From a virus (taxonomy: Duplodnaviria > Heunggongvirae > Uroviricota > Caudoviricetes): DNA of 15,183 nt. A program made the translations under genes and the position numbers. The notes under the pieces are model-generated. The model made no database searches, was not told the DNA's origin, and saw nothing but the letters and a program-made list of their open reading frames with translations. Numbering within the stretch: the stretch's first letter is position 1; every line of letters begins with the position of its first letter. The DNA lies in the IMG/VR virus record IMGVR_UViG_2706794678_000013. One strand, 5' to 3'. Positions 2,847 through 12,186 of the stretch are shown in pieces.

Positions 2847-5439
2847 TTGCATATTCCTTAGCCCAGCGGGGCAGTGATAACGTCTTAATAGCTGGCCATT
2901 CATCGGTATTGAGGCAGTCAGCCAGGGTTCGCAGATTGCGGTGATATTCCAGCTGACCTGCCAGTTTTGCTTCTTCGCCCATCATGAAAATTTCAACCGG
3001 ATAACGTCCGCATTCAATAGTTGTGCTGGCAACCAGAAAAACGAAAGTTGGCTGCACTCCAAACTGTGCTTCATAACCGTCACTGTAGAATGCATCCTGA
3101 ACGTGATAGCGGTAGTCGTAATAAGCGGTTTTGAATCGTTGAATATCCGCCGTAGTTTTCACGTCCATGATCCAGTGAAATTCAGGGATAATTTTGTCCG
3201 GACGGCACCGACACAAAATTGCTGTTTCAGGATCTTCCCAGTAAATTGATGATTCAGCGTGTCCGGCGCTTTCAACAAGCCATTGCCCCAGCGGCAAAGC
3301 CATAACGCTCTGATACATGAGTTCAATTTTCCGGCCTTCTTCGGCAGTGATAACCGTTTTTCCTGTGCTTGCGCATTCCCTCAGAAACGCTTTCTCTTCT
3401 TCTTTTCCGGAGTTTGTCCGGCGGTTAAATTCAGGTGCTACGATAAAGCGGTTACTGAATTCTTCCGGCTCAAGTACCCGGCAGTGGAAAGCGGTTCCTA
3501 AATCGAGCGTTTTTGTCTTTGTGGTGTCCACGGGGGCATTTTTACGCCACAAATACAGTGCCGGAGTATCAGCAATGTCATCGAGCTGAGACTTACTGAC
3601 ACCGGGACCCGCGTGGTAATTCTCATTCGAAATTCCGTAATAAATACCTGGCTCTATGTCTTCTACGATTACGGGATCTGCGACTTCGCCAGTTTCATCA
3701 CTGCAATCGCGATGCGGATCGCTGCCAGCATTCTCATTGTGCGGATGTTCAGCGCCTTCCATTTCCTCCGGATCATTTTCCTTAGCTTCAACCTGACTCT
3801 CTTCATCGAATGTTTCCTGGTATGTTGCGTCGCCCATCACCGCACCACAGTCAGGGCAGTTATCCCCGCCAGTCTGGCCGCAGGCATTGCAGGCTATTTC
3901 CGGTTCCTGTTGCACTACTGGCTCAGGTTGATTCATATCCGGGCTGGTTTTTTCCGTTTCTGGCTGGTTCTGGTACACACAATCGCGAGTCTGGATCCCC
4001 TTTACCCATTTCGGATCGTTCGGGTCGCTAATTCCGTCAACAAATTCACCACGTGATGCAGCAAGCAATTTATCGGCATCGACAGGATTTTTTGATGGAA
4101 TGTTTTTCCGGGCTTCATGGAGTTCTGCCCGCAGTTCCTGATATTTCGCATCAACAGAATTTACCTGTGACTGAGCATCCAGCGGCTGCGTGTCCTGATG
4201 ATGTTCAGTTGCGTCCGGTTCCATTGTTTCAGCCTCTCCCTGTTCAACTGCCGTTGTTCCAGATGGTTGCGGTTTTTCTTCATCATCCTGTTTTCCTTCT
4301 TCTGTTACTCGCTGCGGCATCGGGGCAGAGGAGCGACCGCAGGCAATATCCACGATTTCCGGATCAGGGTTGGCATGATCGGTTTCAGTCAGTACTTTGT
4401 TCAGATATTCAGTGACGTGCGCGGGGATGACCTCGATCCCAATTGGTGCTTCTTTTACGGACGCAACCACGATGGCGCGGGAATAATCCAGCCCGCCAGG
4501 CATGGTGATGAATTTGTCGCGGAAAACAGAAAAGGGCGGTTTATTTTCAGCGATAATTTCCTCAATGCGTTTAGCGTGTGCCGGATGAAGGTTATAGATG
4601 TCCAGATCCATTGAACGGGCCAGTACGCCAGTGGCTACGTCCCGCGCCAGTGACGTCAGATCGTGTACGAAACCTTCGCCGCGATCGGTGAGGTTTCCGC
4701 CGCCAGCATTAGCACCGGAAGCCGTGCGAGTGATGTGTGAAACACGATTACCCTTCATCCACTCTTTTGTCAGCAGTCCTCGATCGGTGTAGTCAGCGTT
4801 CAGGTATGCTTCGAAAAAAGCAGTTATCAGTCCCAGGTTTGAATTACCAGGATTAGGGAAAACTTTGTCAGTGTCACGAACCAGTTTGTGGAGTTCGCGA
4901 ATTTCCAGCGGGTCGAGCAGGCTGGTTTTGTGGGAAACAGCCAGGGCAGTAACAGCCGGTAGTTCTTCAGCCCGAGCAATGTGTAATGCCTGGAGTCCGT
5001 CGCGTGAAACGTGCGTTACCGGTTTTTCGCTGCCGTGTTGAGCAAGCCAACGAATGGGCAGTTCCTGGCCAGAAATTGGGAGTAGCATATTCTCCTCAAT
5101 CTCAGTCATGTCTTCGCCGTTGACGTTGGTATTGCCTTGATAGTGAGCGTTGTCTGGTGCTGCTCCCGGTTTTAGTTCCCATGTCATGGAGTCTTTGCTG
5201 AGTTGATAGCGTTCACTCCAGGTAAAATCGATCTCACCTTCAGCGGGCAGGTCATTAACGACAGGAAAATTCGTGGCAACAGCTTTAAAATAGCTGCTCA
5301 GTTTTTTACCTGACTTAACGANNNNNNNNNNNNNNNNNNNNNNNNNNNNNNNNNNNNNNNNNNNNNNNNNNNNNNNNNNNNNNNNNNNNNNNNNNNNNNN
5401 NNNNNNNNNNNNNNNNNNNNNNNNNNNNNNNNNNNNNNN
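2839..5439 (-). CDS. recE: RecE exonuclease VIII; 5' end (about 39 codons) lies inside the N-run, start coordinate inferred from 866-aa length
   Basis: Minus ORF with no stop between 2839 and the N-run at 5322; visible sequence ...[61 protein letters not shown] matches remembered RecE; C-terminal exonuclease domain, internal Cys cluster [16 protein letters not shown]. Track ORF start at 5187 is only the first internal Met. Confidence 0.85.
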
Positions 5440-5580
5440 NNNNNNNNNNNNNNNNNNNNNNNNNNNNNNNNNNNNNNNNNNNNNNNNNNNNNNNNNNNNN
5501 NNNNNNNNNNNNNNNNNNNNNNNNNNNNNNNNNNNNNNNNNNNNNNNNNNNNNNNNNNNNNNNNNNNNNNNNNNNNNNNN
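5322..5580. other. Run of 259 N (unresolved or masked bases)
   Basis: Direct observation; hides recE start, the racC-recE intergenic region and racC stop. Confidence 1.
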
Positions 5581-7520: not shown

Positions 7521-7684
7521 CTTATCTCTCCCCTTAACGCCGGGTGGCGGAACTGAAACCTGCTGCACTGCAAAATCTGAACCCTGCCGTCATGTTCATA
7601 CGCCTCGGGCTGGCTACTTAACCCCTGACCACTGCCTGGTAACTCGAAGTATTGCCCTGCGTTCTGTGGGGCGGGGTGGGTTGG

Positions 7685-7740
7685 TAGGTATATAATGTAC
7701 TTTGTGTTCATTGATGTAAAGTACTATAAGTACATTTTGT
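7685..7740 (-). promoter_or_regulatory. Putative leftward early promoter/operator region (OL/pL analogue) downstream of racR stop
   Basis: AT-rich block with ATGTAC / GTAC repeats (aatgtac 7694-7700, gtac 7721-7724, gtacat 7730-7735) and the inverted pair GTACTTT...AAAGTAC; minus-strand TTTACA (7720-7715) with TTATAT/CATTAT -10-like hexamers 15-19 nt downstream. Same ATGTAC motif recurs in the racR-ydaS intergenic region. Confidence 0.35.
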
Positions 7741-7810
7741 GTGTAAAAAAATGAGATGGGATAAAGTGAAGCACAAACCCGGAGGGGGACGCTACCGGAT
7801 TTATGCTGGT

Positions 7811-8230
7811 TTAAGAGGCTTTTTGTTTTTTCTTTCGTGCTAGCTCTTCGTAAATTGCATTGTACTTCTGTTTTTTCTCCTCAAGAGTTTTTAAAAGTTC
7901 ATCTGTCTCACTGTCAGGGAGCTCGTCCAGAAGGTCAATGATGATTTTTTGTCTTGGATTTAACTCCTGATAGAAACGTACCTGTCCACTTTCTTCTGTA
8001 TCCTCTCCCAAAAGATAGGTTGGTGTTGTTCCAATGAGTGTTGCTAATTCCCTTAATTTCTCTCGGCGAGGAATTGTTTCGCCATTAAACCATTTGCTAA
8101 CCGCTTTTGGTGTTAATTTCATTCGACGGGCAATTTCTGCCTGCCTTCCATGTTGTTCATAACCAGCGTTTTCACAGGCTAGCGCAAGCCTACTGGCGAA
8201 CTCTTTACGCGCTTTATCTTCATGAACCAT
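7811..8230 (-). CDS. racR: RacR prophage repressor, HTH XRE-family (CI-like), 139 aa from ATG 8230 (alternative GTG start at 8248 gives 145 aa)
   Basis: Minus ORF; helix-turn-helix QAEIARRMKLTPKAVSKWFNGETIPRREKLRELATLIGTTPTYLLGED; divergently oriented to ydaS as expected for a repressor/cro pair. Track start at 8248 is a GTG codon. Confidence 0.8.
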   Translation of the reverse strand: MVHEDKARKEFASRLALACENAGYEQHGRQAEIARRMKLTPKAVSKWFNGETIPRREKLRELATLIGTTPTYLLGEDTEESGQVRFYQELNPRQKIIIDLLDELPDSETDELLKTLEEKKQKYNAIYEELARKKKQKAS

Positions 8231-8309
8231 AAGTTCAATGATATTCACTCTTGAATGTACTGTCAGTTCTGTTATAGCATGTACTCAAAGTTCACATTGT
8301 GAGGGTGAT
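8231..8309. promoter_or_regulatory. Divergent racR / ydaS promoter-operator region (OR analogue)
   Basis: 79-bp intergenic region between divergent start codons; repeated ATGTAC motif (8255-8260, 8279-8284), inverted repeat TTCAA(8234-8238)/TTGAA(8251-8255); plus-strand TTGAAT (8251-8256) -16 nt- TATAGC (8273-8278) as a candidate rightward promoter. Confidence 0.4.
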
Positions 8310-8564
8310 ATGAACCAGAAAACACTTGAAGATGTAATCAAAACTGTTCGCGTTTCTGTTGTGGCCGACGTTTGTGGTGTCAGCCAAAGAGCAATCTACA
8401 AATGGATGGATAACGGAAAATTGCCTCGCACAGAATATACCGGCGAAACAAATTACGCTGAAAAAATCGCTCATGCATCAAACGGATTATTTTCTGCTGA
8501 TGTAATTTTAACTATTGGCAGAAATAAAACTACTACGAAAAAGCTGATGGGAGTTGATTCATGA
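8310..8564 (+). CDS. ydaS: YdaS, Cro-like HTH DNA-binding protein, 84 aa
   Basis: Plus ORF from ATG 8310 with GAGGGTGA RBS; HTH VADVCGVSQRAIYKWMDNGKLP; stop overlaps ydaT start (ATGA). Confidence 0.8.
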   Translation: MNQKTLEDVIKTVRVSVVADVCGVSQRAIYKWMDNGKLPRTEYTGETNYAEKIAHASNGLFSADVILTIGRNKTTTKKLMGVDS

Positions 8565-8983
8565 AAATCAAGCATGAGCACATCGAGTCAGTGTTGTTAG
8601 CCCTGGCAGCCGAAAAAGGGCAGGCATGGGTAGCCAATGCCATTACTGAAGAATATCTGCGCCAGGGGGGCGGCGAATTGCCCCTGGTACCAGGCAAGGA
8701 CTGGAATAATCAGCAGAATATCTATCACCGTTGGTTGAAAGGTGAAACGAAAACGCAAAGAGAAAAAATTCAGAAGCTGATCCCAGCAATTCTGGCAATC
8801 CTTCCGCGCGAGCTGCGTCACCGACTCTGCATCTTCGATACCCTGGAACGCCGTGCATTACTGGCGGCGCAGGAAGCGTTAAGTACGGCAATTGATGCGC
8901 ATGATGATGCAGTCCAAGCCGTTTACCGGAAAGCGCATTTCAGCGGCGGCGGGTCTTCCGACGATTCTGTCATTGTTCATTAA
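8561..8983 (+). CDS. ydaT: YdaT (CII-like regulator, reported toxic on overexpression), 140 aa
   Basis: Plus ORF MKIKHEHIESVLLALAAEKGQAWVANAITEEYLRQGGGELPL...; translationally coupled to ydaS; matches remembered Rac YdaT. Confidence 0.85.
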   Translation: MKIKHEHIESVLLALAAEKGQAWVANAITEEYLRQGGGELPLVPGKDWNNQQNIYHRWLKGETKTQREKIQKLIPAILAILPRELRHRLCIFDTLERRALLAAQEALSTAIDAHDDAVQAVYRKAHFSGGGSSDDSVIVH

Positions 8984-10148: not shown

Positions 10149-10398
10149 NNNNNNNNNNNNNNNNNNNNNNNNNNNNNNNNNNNNNNNNNNNNNNNNNNNN
10201 NNNNNNNNNNNNNNNNNNNNNNNNNNNNNNNNNNNNNNNNNNNNNNNNNNNNNNNNNNNNNNNNNNNNNNNNNNNNNNNNNNNNNNNNNNNNNNNNNNNN
10301 NNNNNNNNNNNNNNNNNNNNNNNNNNNNNNNNNNNNNNNNNNNNNNNNNNNNNNNNNNNNNNNNNNNNNNNNNNNNNNNNNNNNNNNNNNNNNNNNNN
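10149..10398. other. Run of 250 N (unresolved or masked bases) hiding the junction between ydaV copy 1 and a second ydaU-like segment
   Basis: Direct observation. Confidence 1.
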
Positions 10399-10954
10399 GC
10401 GTTAATTCAGGTTGGATGGCTGGTCGAAAATGACGGAGGGCTTTCTCTACCTAACTTTGAACGTCATAACGGAAAAAGCTCTAAAAAAAACGGGCGGTTA
10501 CAAACGAGCGAGTAACAAAAATACGCGAACTGAAACGAAAAGGTAACGCTGCCAGCGTTACACAAACGGATCAAAAAGCGTTACCAGAGGAAGAGGAAGA
10601 GGAAGATCTAAATACTGATCTCCCCCTCGCCAAAAACGAGCGTCTAAAAAATTCGAGCCGGAGGCTATTGAGCTGCCCGATTGGTTGCCGGAAACACTCT
10701 GGCATGAGTGGGTCCGGTTCAGACAGGCATTGCGAAAACCGATTCGAACGGAGCAGGGCGCTAACGGGGCGATACGGGAACTGGAAAAATTCCGTCAGCA
10801 GGGTTTTACACCTGAGCAGGTGATTCGACACAGCATCGCCAATGAATACCAGGGCCTGTTCGCGCCGAAAGGTGTTCGGCCTGAGACGTTGCTCCGACAG
10901 GTTAACACCGTCTCGTTGCCGGACAGTGCGATCCCGCCAGGCTTCAGGGGGTAA
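10399..10954 (+). pseudogene. Second, diverged ydaU-like 3' segment, 5'-truncated and interrupted by two apparent 1-nt frameshifts in poly-A runs
   Basis: Three consecutive frames must be joined to follow the ydaU-like protein: ...ENDGGLSLPNFERHNGKSSKK (stop 10513-10515) / RAVTNERVTKIRELKRKGNAASVTQTDQKALPEEEEEEDLNTDLPLAKNER / KKFEPEAIELPDWLPETLWHEWVRFRQALRKPIRTEQGANGAIRELEKFRQQGFTPEQVIRHSIANEYQGLFAPKGVRPETLLRQVNTVSLPDSAIPPGFRG; shifts coincide with A8 (10483-10490) and A6 (10646-10651). Confidence 0.5.
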
Positions 10955-11256
10955 CGGACCATGAAAAATATTGCGACAGGCGGCGTTCTGGAACGCATCC
11001 GCCGACTGACCCCGCCACATGTAACCGCCCCATTCAGAACGGTAGCGGAGTGGCGCGAGTGGCAACTTGCTGAAGGCCAGAAACGTAGCGAGGAGATCAA
11101 CCGCCTGAATCGCCAGTTGCGGGTGGAAAAAATTCTGAATCGCTCAGGCATCCAGCCGTTGCACCGTAAATGCTCGTTTGCGAATTACCAGGTGCAGAAC
11201 GACGGCCAGCGATACGCGTTAAGCCAGGCGAAATCCATCGCCGATGAACTGATGAC
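10691..11256 (+). repeat. Repeat unit B: second copy of ydaU 3' end plus ydaV 5' end; its last 225 bp (11032-11256) are identical to 11511-11735
   Basis: Direct comparison of the sequence on both sides of the N-run 11257-11510. Confidence 0.85.
10961..11256 (+). CDS. ydaV: YdaV DnaC-like helicase loader, copy 2, 5' portion before N-run (may be the same gene as 11511-12186 if the N-run is a scaffolding gap)
   Basis: ATG 10961; MKNIATGGVLERIRRLTPPHVTAPFRTVAEWREWQLAEGQKRSEEINRLNRQLRVEKILNRSGIQPLHRKCSFANYQVQNDGQRYALSQAKSIADELM then Ns. Confidence 0.55.
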
Positions 11257-11510
11257 NNNNNNNNNNNNNNNNNNNNNNNNNNNNNNNNNNNNNNNNNNNN
11301 NNNNNNNNNNNNNNNNNNNNNNNNNNNNNNNNNNNNNNNNNNNNNNNNNNNNNNNNNNNNNNNNNNNNNNNNNNNNNNNNNNNNNNNNNNNNNNNNNNNN
11401 NNNNNNNNNNNNNNNNNNNNNNNNNNNNNNNNNNNNNNNNNNNNNNNNNNNNNNNNNNNNNNNNNNNNNNNNNNNNNNNNNNNNNNNNNNNNNNNNNNNN
11501 NNNNNNNNNN
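11257..11510. other. Run of 254 N flanked by identical 225-bp sequence on both sides
   Basis: Direct observation. Confidence 1.
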
Positions 11511-12186
11511 ATTCAGAACGGTAGCGGAGTGGCGCGAGTGGCAACTTGCTGAAGGCCAGAAACGTAGCGAGGAGATCAACCGCCTGAATCGCCAGTTGCG
11601 GGTGGAAAAAATTCTGAATCGCTCAGGCATCCAGCCGTTGCACCGTAAATGCTCGTTTGCGAATTACCAGGTGCAGAACGACGGCCAGCGATACGCGTTA
11701 AGCCAGGCGAAATCCATCGCCGATGAACTGATGACCGGGTGTACAAATTTTGCGTTCAGCGGAAAACCTGGTACCGGGAAGAATCACTTAGCGGCAGCTA
11801 TCGGGAATCGCCTGCTGAAAGACGGTCAGACAGTGATTGTGGTTACCGTGGCTGATGTTATGAGTGCCCTGCACGCCAGCTATGACGATGGGCAGTCAGG
11901 CGAAAAATTTTTGCGGGAACTATGCGAAGTGGATCTGCTGGTTCTTGATGAAATTGGCATTCAGCGCGAGACGAAAAACGAGCAGGTGGTGCTGCACCAG
12001 ATTGTTGATCGCCGGACAGCGTCGATGCGCAGCGTGGGGATGCTGACAAACCTGAACTATGAGGTGATGAAAACATTGCTCGGCGAGCGGGTGATGGATC
12101 GCATGGTCATGAACGGCGGGCGCTGGGTGAATTTTAACTGGGAGAGCTGGCGTCCGAATGTTAGCCATTCGAGGGTTGTTAAGTAG
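11511..12186 (+). CDS. ydaV: YdaV DnaC-like AAA+ helicase loader, 3' portion from about codon 25 to stop (Walker A and B present)
   Basis: Frame FRTVAEWREWQ... continuing through Walker A GKPGTGKNHLAAAIG and Walker B LLVLDEIG to stop TAG 12184-12186; no start codon visible because sequence begins at N-run. Confidence 0.75.

Follow-up and report, generated by a model that had tools for sequence, protein, structure and literature searches.

Five candidate operators of an HK022/933W-type immunity switch around a short CI-family repressor gene in a Rac-type prophage backbone

The window analyzed here is a 15,183-bp stretch of viral DNA (Caudoviricetes; IMG/VR record IMGVR_UViG_2706794678_000013), and the element under study is a set of short symmetric sites beside its repressor gene. 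The operator unit is a quasi-palindrome of 15 to 17 bp, (A)TGWAC-N5-GTWCA(T), which is found five times in the 15 kb, each time adjoining the repressor gene. Three of these candidate operators (OR1 to OR3) lie between the divergent repressor and cro genes, in fixed register and with the third over the repressor start. The second candidate set (OL1 and OL2) is formed by two sites past the 3' end of the repressor gene, over the -35 and -10 elements of a predicted leftward promoter. All five match the symmetric core, and the scores given with them come from a position-weight matrix (PWM) built from 21 family sites. The features of the locus, from left to right, are as follows.

7687-8554, no strand: immunity cassette (OL, repressor, OR and cro) that replaces the OL-racR-OR-ydaS module of K-12 Rac, delimited by blastn against K-12 W3110.
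7692-7720, minus strand: predicted PL-like promoter of the leftward ydaG-ydaF operon, with -35 TTTACA (7720-7715), a 17-nt spacer and -10 CATTAT (7697-7692).
7695-7711, no strand: OL1, ATGTACTTTGTGTTCAT; core match, PWM score 14.9 bits; position common to all relatives, core invariant, spacer variable.
7719-7735, no strand: OL2, AAGTACTATAAGTACAT; core match, 17.8 bits; overlaps the -35 element of the leftward promoter.
7811-8230, minus strand: repressor gene (not racR), encoding 139 amino acids with a CI-family HTH_3 DNA-binding domain and a short, probably helical tail.
8222-8238, no strand: OR3, ATGAACCATAAGTTCAA; core match, 19.2 bits; covers the ATG of the repressor gene (8230-8228) and reaches the final base of the PRM -10 element.
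8238-8266, minus strand: predicted PRM-like promoter of the repressor, with -35 CTGACA (8266-8261), a 17-nt spacer and -10 TATCAT (8243-8238).
8251-8280, plus strand: PR-like promoter of cro-ydaT, with -35 TTGAAT (8251-8256) and either TATAGC (8273-8278) or TAGCAT (8275-8280) as -10.
8255-8271, no strand: OR2, ATGTACTGTCAGTTCTG; core match, 16.2 bits; lies between the PR -35 and -10 elements and covers the PRM -35 element.
8279-8295, no strand: OR1, ATGTACTCAAAGTTCAC; core match, 18.6 bits; lies over the end of the PR -10 element and the expected PR start site.
8310-8564, plus strand: cro-type gene (not ydaS), encoding 84 amino acids with 62% identity to HK022 Cro by sequence comparison.

As 15-mers, the sites read TGTACTTTGTGTTCA (OL1), AGTACTATAAGTACA (OL2), TGAACCATAAGTTCA (OR3), TGTACTGTCAGTTCT (OR2), and TGTACTCAAAGTTCA (OR1). 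All are rotationally symmetric, with G-(A/T)-A-C at half-site positions 2 to 5 and T or C at position 6. OL1 sits over the spacer between the -35 and -10 elements of the leftward promoter, overlapping the -10 element by 3 bp, and its center is 24 bp from that of OL2. The first-pass annotation of this DNA had pointed to the hexamer ATGTAC, or its core GTAC, on both sides of the repressor gene in partly palindromic arrangements. The copies are present, with ATGTAC at 7695-7700, 8255-8260, and 8279-8284 on the plus strand and at 7730-7735 on the minus strand, and GTAC at 7721-7724; the interval given as 7694-7700 spans seven bases (AATGTAC), a trivial slip that leaves the motif itself standing. 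The palindromic arrangement is likewise real, whereas the hexamer is not the unit, and the fifth site at 8222-8238 (OR3) was overlooked because it carries GAAC/GTTC instead of GTAC.

Counts across the window show the same distinction. ATGTAC occurs 5 times against 4.07 expected, a number reached in 76 of 200 shuffles, and since the hexamer is unenriched over the window as a whole, it is not the unit; four of its five copies fall in the two short noncoding stretches beside the repressor gene. The longer sequence ATGTACTNNNNGTWC (repeat family D1) occurs 4 times against 0.01 expected, and for the symmetric core GWAC-N5-GTWC, 5 occurrences, all of them beside the repressor gene, compare with an expectation of 0.58. 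The PWM scan of the window, with a cutoff of 8 bits, retrieved the five sites and nothing else above that value. In the pooled half-sites of the family from which the matrix was built, the four central positions are G, W, A, and C in 42 of 42 cases each, the preceding position is T in 31/42, and the following one is T or C in 40/42. A three-mismatch hit at 8567-8583 was considered as a further operator and dismissed, because its critical positions are broken.

The promoters over which the sites lie were predicted by a consensus scan, with 9 of 12 consensus matches for the PL-like promoter and 10 of 12 for the PRM-like promoter. The predicted PRM -10 element coincides in position with the -10 and start site that are annotated for pRM in phage 24B. 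The repressor ATG (8230) lies only 7 nt beyond this -10 element, so that the repressor mRNA is probably leaderless, as in the 24B annotation; leaderless repressor mRNAs have been published for lambda cI, paaR2, and racR (PMC8630535, PMC9638921). The PR-like promoter aligns with the pR -35 element and the CATAAT -10 element of HK022 and 24B, and its own -10 element falls below the threshold of the consensus scan. The overlap of the sites with promoter hexamers, as originally claimed, holds on the scan for the two leftward promoters, while for the rightward one it rests on the alignment to annotated elements of 933W-type phages. The -10 hexamer TATAGC lacks the conserved final T, and some related loci have T or A in place of the C at 8278, a change that would alter PR strength.

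The protein encoded next to the sites matches, at 100% identity, the product annotated as "CI repressor" in Escherichia phage Tritos, and it is 60 to 64% identical to its counterparts in Klebsiella phages 2b LV-2017 and Kp4862-1 and in Salmonella phage ABTNLsp11242. Searches of phage sequences with tblastn extended the homology to the CI of 933W-type Stx phages (50.7% identity over the first 73 residues) and to HK022 CI (47.5% identity over residues 4 to 102). Among solved structures there was a marginal match only, to the N-terminal domain of P22 C2. The recognition helix is TPKAVSKWFNGE in the window, and the Klebsiella and Salmonella phages have the same helix; that of HK022 is TPKAISKWFNGE and that of 24B is SSKGVSKWFNAE. 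Residues K42, S45, K46, W47, F48, and N49 are invariant among the repressors compared. The first-pass annotation had named this gene racR and the divergent gene ydaS. Neither name can be kept: the repressor has only 12 of 33 residues in common with K-12 RacR, and the 84-amino-acid product of the divergent gene is unrelated to YdaS and is instead an HK022-type Cro.

The repressor differs from its better-known homologs in its C-terminal part. No match to Peptidase_S24 was found in the 139 residues, and in the alignment its homology to relatives of 235 to 236 amino acids ends just before their ...SAGPG... Ala-Gly cleavage region. As the same alignment shows, the repressor lacks the GDSM and KRL motifs of the S24-bearing relatives. 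In place of the S24 domain, residues ~97 to 139 form a charged tail of ~40 amino acids, ELPDSETDELLKTLEEKKQKYNAIYEELARKKKQKAS. This tail is probably helical, although a single-sequence AlphaFold model of the repressor (mean pLDDT of 52) gives just a weak hint of it. The family phrog_5736, which consists of regulators of ~133 amino acids, covers residues 27 to 139 including the tail, which indicates that the short form of the repressor is recurrent and not accidental.

Related loci were scanned for the core. In the window and in the loci that carry the same allele (those of EDL933, Shigella flexneri, phage Tritos, and E. coli A30), core sites lie at -8, +25, and +49 relative to the repressor ATG, together with an OL pair 24 bp apart. 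HK022 and Salmonella phage ABTNLsp11242 present the same three offsets and the same OL pair, and Klebsiella phage 2b has the three OR cores at these offsets with one downstream core site only. In HK022 a further core occurs at +316, the counterpart of the additional operator described ~300 bp beyond OR (PMC8053113). Operators are annotated in the GenBank records of phages 24B and 27deltatox; they share the core of the window sites and are likewise arranged as three OR and two OL sites. In these 933W-type annotations, OR1 is CGTACTGAAAGTACG, OR2 is AAAACTTTCAGTTCA (with a degenerate left half), OR3, over the leaderless cI start, is TGAACCATGAGTACG, OL1 is TGAACCAATAGTTCGA, and OL2 is AAGAACTATTGGTAC. 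OR1 of the window is in register with the annotated OR1 of 24B. OR3 is in register with the annotated OR3 of the 933W-type phages, and HK022 has an almost identical site at this offset. When the OR regions of six sequences are aligned, the three sites, the PR -35 element, and the -35 and -10 elements of PRM all fall in register.

The cores are found at the same offsets in five diverged lineages that differ in their promoter hexamers and spacers. Unlike the shuffle statistics, this conservation across lineages is an independent test of the operator pattern. As a negative control, GWAC-N5-GTWC was searched in K-12 Rac and gave 0 sites in 6.1 kb.

Conservation at a finer scale was examined within the allele. 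A scan of genome contigs from other species for relatives returned one locus, an identical copy in Shigella flexneri, and a scan of viral contigs returned 80 loci. All of the latter encode an identical DNA-binding domain and hence inform on fine-scale conservation only, the divergent lineages having come from the phage tblastn search. The 80 viral contigs and 4 genome or phage loci make up a set of 84 loci with the same allele, from which 16 distinct usable OR sequences and 35 distinct usable OL sequences were obtained. Variable columns number 3 of 36 in the operator cores, 9 of 22 in their spacers, and 30 of 69 between the sites. The mean number of distinct sequences that differ per column is 0.14 in the cores, compared with 4.23 in the spacers and 2.03 between sites. 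The difference is significant by Fisher's exact test for the cores against all other columns (p = 2e-4) and against the spacers alone (p = 0.006). In phage Tritos, the substitutions in OL1, OL2, and OR1 are all inside the N5 spacer. This pattern of variation points to purifying selection on the operator cores within this allele.

The closest experimentally studied systems are those of HK022 and the 933W-type phages. The 933W repressor site is 15 bp long and rotationally symmetric, with positions 2 to 5 (G, A/T, A, C) critical, T preferred over A at position 3, T or C at position 6, and position 1 nearly irrelevant; residues K42 and K46 of the repressor make specific contacts, and the K46A variant loses all specificity (PMC3317979). 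The five 15-mers of the window satisfy every one of these base preferences (rules from PMC3317979), with the same symmetric 15-bp form and G-(A/T)-A-C at positions 2 to 5, and both lysines that define the base contacts are retained in the recognition helix of the window repressor. The window and the 933W-type phages also have in common three OR sites, only two OL sites, and an OR3 that lies over a leaderless cI start (PMC3317979; PMC5977221). They differ at position 1, which is mostly C in 933W and T in the window, and in the recognition helix (SSKGVSKWFNAE against TPKAVSKWFNGE). From OR1 to OR2 the spacing is 25 bp in 933W and 24 bp in the window, and from OR2 to OR3 it is 31 bp in 933W and 33 bp in the window. 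The 933W CI has an S24 domain, and its locus is flanked by cII, O, P, and stk instead of ydaT, ydaU, and ydaV.

HK022 also resembles the window in the DNA itself. The operator cores are the same, OR3 is nearly identical (TTGAACTTATGGTTCAT in the window and TTGAACTTATGGTTCAA in HK022), and the recognition helices are one conservative residue apart. At the nucleotide level, identity between the two is 70% from the cI N-terminal domain through OR to cro and 82% over OL (window 7691-7751). The HK022 immunity region comprises cI, cro, OL, and OR (Carlson & Little 1993, as summarized in PMC8053113), and its CI binds cooperatively to adjacent sites and mediates OL-OR looping (PMC8053113). In contrast to the 139-amino-acid window repressor with its short, probably helical tail, HK022 CI has 235 amino acids, including an S24 domain for self-cleavage and oligomerization. 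HK022 also possesses an OL3 site and the far-right operator ~300 bp beyond OR (PMC8053113), neither of which is present in the window, where the PWM scan found no weak equivalent of either above 8 bits. Downstream of cro, HK022 carries cII, whereas the window carries ydaT.

The surroundings of this region belong to a different prophage. A blastn comparison showed that the K-12 W3110 Rac prophage is 99% identical to the window up to position 7686 and again from 8555, with no match in between, and because this identity flanks 7687-8554 on both sides, the backbone is assigned to Rac and the segment between to a different immunity cassette. To the left of the cassette, the Rac backbone genes are recE, recT, kilR, sieB, and ydaF, and to its right they are ydaT, ydaU, and ydaV, all 99% identical to K-12; the first-pass names ydaG and ydaF (leftward) and ydaT were correct. 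Relative to K-12 Rac, both operator sets and both regulators have been exchanged together, and the breakpoints lie within 10 bp of OL1 and of the ydaT ATG. When 7560-8330 was compared by megablast with complete E. coli genomes, K-12 W3110 matched 7560-7686 only, and 1,047 of 5,426 genomes, O157:H7 EDL933 among them, held at least 80% of this 771-bp query.

The likeness to K-12 Rac comprises the prophage backbone, the genome position, and ydaT downstream, and it extends to the logic of the switch: RacR also lacks an S24 domain, has a leaderless mRNA, and is served by three operators in the divergent region, one of them over its ATG (PMC9638921), and two further sites lie to the left of the repressor gene. 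The components are different, as the repressor and Cro are unrelated in sequence to their K-12 counterparts and the operator recognized by RacR is (T/A)TAGGC-n3-GCCTA(T/A) (PMC9638921) instead of TGWAC-N5-GTWCA. K-12 Rac has six sites of the RacR type in the same architecture. The RacR motif TAGGC-n3-GCCTA is absent from the window, in which the one match with two mismatches lies in coding DNA, against 3.7 expected. In the K-12 W3110 Rac region, RacR-type repeats were seen at 3138-3150 (TAGGTAATGCCTA) and 3163-3175 (TAGGCTATGCCTA), 25 bp apart, to the left of racR and upstream of ydaG. These two repeats are an apparent OL for K-12 Rac; neither ydaG nor any site downstream of racR came up in text searches of two Nucleic Acids Research papers on RacR and YdaT.

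Taken together, the five sites very probably serve as operators in an HK022/933W-type lambdoid immunity switch and are bound by the adjacent 139-amino-acid CI-family repressor. This type of element is a textbook one, and the HK022/933W operator family is already experimentally characterized; we found no paper on this particular cassette or on phage Tritos. In the proposed switch, repressor dimers would bind the 15-bp sequence T-G-W-A-C-(T/C)-N3-(A/G)-G-T-W-C-A through the helix-turn-helix, with TPKAVSKWFNGE as the recognition helix. OL1 and OL2 would cover the leftward promoter (ydaG, ydaF, and on towards kilR and recET), and OR1 and OR2 the rightward promoter (cro, ydaT, and the replication genes), and we propose that their occupancy silences both early operons. 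OR3, located over the start of the leaderless repressor transcript, would provide negative autoregulation by shutting off PRM at higher occupancy, and the HK022-type Cro most likely competes for the same sites. Binding itself, the order of occupancy, cooperativity, and looping are features that we infer, and repressor bound at OR2 may or may not activate PRM. The first-pass annotation is thus partly supported: its lambda-like arrangement of OL and OR sets flanking the repressor gene over divergent early promoters receives strong comparative support, and it appears right in function and is wrong in the identity of the proteins.

Several observations weigh against this interpretation or narrow it. 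The extended patterns were taken from the very sites that were later counted, which makes the shuffle statistics partly post hoc. In a repressor that lacks the S24 and oligomerization domain, the affinity, dimerization, cooperativity, and OL-OR looping of the HK022 and 933W proteins cannot be assumed to carry over. Owing to its poor -10 element, PR may be weak in this allele. Lastly, the center of OR2 lies ~33 bp upstream of the presumed PRM start, over the PRM -35 element, a position that argues against a simple lambda-like activation of PRM.

Four other explanations of the sites were weighed. The first proposal, taken literally, is that RacR (and YdaS) bind them as in the Rac prophage of E. 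coli K-12, and in its favor are a backbone 99% identical to K-12 and the three intergenic operators of K-12 RacR with O3 over its ATG (PMC9638921). Nevertheless, this reading is already refuted at the level of sequence, since K-12 DNA has no match over 7687-8554, the repressor has 12/33 residues in common with RacR, the Cro-like protein is unrelated to YdaS, and TAGGC-n3-GCCTA is absent from the window and present six times in K-12, where GWAC-N5-GTWC is not found. It is also very improbable that a common hexamer clustered by chance in AT-rich promoter DNA, or that promoter hexamers alone are seen, without a dedicated binding protein. ATGTAC by itself is indeed unenriched (5 against 4.07 expected), and the sites do overlap -35 and -10 elements, but the 15-mer and the symmetric core far exceed chance, the offsets of the cores are kept across five diverged lineages with different promoter hexamers and spacers, the core columns are conserved next to variable spacer columns, and the homologous 933W sites have been shown biochemically to bind the 933W repressor (PMC3317979). 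Equally little probability attaches to the sites being primarily targets of Cro or of the CII-like YdaT and not of the repressor. In lambdoid switches Cro does share its operators with CI, which is part of the preferred explanation instead of an alternative to it, and a DNA-binding YdaT is encoded just downstream; its CP-933P box, TTGATT-N6-AATCAA (PMC9986795), occurs once, at 8554-8571, and at none of the five sites, and the recognition helix that matches the characterized 933W contacts is that of the repressor.

A somewhat larger, still small probability is given to the sites being relics of a decayed HK022-type region, in which the truncated repressor no longer binds usefully and other factors silence the prophage. 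Such decay could account for the missing S24 and oligomerization domain, the weak PR -10 element, and the absence from the window of counterparts to the HK022 OL3 and far-right operator (PMC8053113), and many host prophages are defective. The distribution of the short repressor speaks against it, as the 139-amino-acid form is intact, with an identical DNA-binding domain, in at least 80 viral contigs, and at least 80% of the 771-bp query, which includes the repressor, is found in 1,047/5,426 complete E. coli genomes. The repressor is moreover the annotated CI of phage Tritos, which was deposited as a complete 46-kb genome, its tail falls within phrog_5736 with regulators of ~133 amino acids, and the apparent purifying selection on the operator cores would be unexpected for relics.

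Operators of two other kinds were looked for. The paaR2/ydaS-ydaT region of the cryptic prophage CP-933P (PMC8630535) resembles the locus in that it encodes a lambdoid switch: it has both OR and OL sets, its repressor gene is leaderless, and ydaT serves as the CII analog. Its operators are however 18-bp palindromes with the half-site GTTTAGTAA (PMC8630535), and its repressor operon includes the paaA2-parE2 toxin-antitoxin genes, which the window does not have. The half-site GTTTAGTAA has no match in the window with up to one mismatch, and PaaR2/YdaS-type repeats were thereby ruled out as the identity of the sites. A LexA box (CTGT-N8-ACAG) has no match with up to one mismatch within 7600-8400, and the candidate in ACTGTCAGTTCTGTTATAG was rejected because it does not match.

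The HK022/933W-type reading corrects a misannotation that is easily propagated, because Shigella and numerous E. coli strains, O157:H7 EDL933 among them, have a Rac-type prophage that carries an HK022-type cassette and not racR/ydaS. Since the cassette differs, the results on essentiality, cross talk, and binding sites of K-12 RacR are not transferable to them at the level of sequence, while the logic is. At this locus a whole immunity unit has been exchanged as a module, a clear-cut case from nature, and the predicted binding sites are precise enough for direct mutagenesis. A repressor without an S24 domain would not allow induction by RecA-stimulated self-cleavage and raises the question of how, or whether, such prophages are induced.

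A wider and much more tentative possibility is that the 139-amino-acid repressor is a naturally S24-less CI derivative with HK022 specificity, recruited as a portable cassette that locks down Rac-type prophages in about one-fifth of the sequenced E. coli. Prophages locked in this manner would have kilR downstream of PL and ydaT downstream of PR. Being uncleavable via RecA, the repressor would make the switch insensitive to SOS, and the switch would be either permanently locked or opened by another trigger, for example by an antirepressor or by Cro from a newly infecting phage. As the operators and the recognition helix are nearly those of HK022, the cassette could confer cross-immunity to HK022-type phages, and, conversely, the Cro of such a phage could on infection derepress ydaT and kilR, with the death of the cell as a result, an outcome resembling abortive infection.

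The cassette is also present in other surroundings. Phage Tritos and E. coli A30 are 96% identical to the window over 7529-8584 in a different backbone, in which dicB (plus DicF in Tritos) stands on the left in place of kilR and sieB, and this indicates that the immunity unit moves modularly among lambdoid prophages. The gene that follows the cassette on the right is part of the Rac backbone:

8561-8983, plus strand: ydaT (CII-like), second gene of the PR operon, in the shared backbone; PF06254, phrog_163 (CII-like activator), 99% identical to K-12 from 8555.

At 8554-8571 lies a perfect YdaT box, TTGATTCATGAAAATCAA, which matches the published CP-933P sequence TTGATT-N6-AATCAA (PMC9986795). 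The box extends over both the stop codon of cro and the ATG of ydaT, exactly where the 99% identity to K-12 resumes (8555), and marks the right-hand recombination junction of the cassette. It may be an autoregulatory or PRE-like site for YdaT.

Runs of N, which are masked stretches or gaps, occupy 1658-1967, 5322-5580, 10149-10398, and 11257-11510 of the window, and one of them falls within the ydaV open reading frame, appearing as a run of X in the translation. To the right of ydaV, 10697-11256 and 11511-12075 match the K-12 ydaU/ydaV sequence a second time, with 92 to 96% identity, which suggests a partial duplication or a second related segment downstream.

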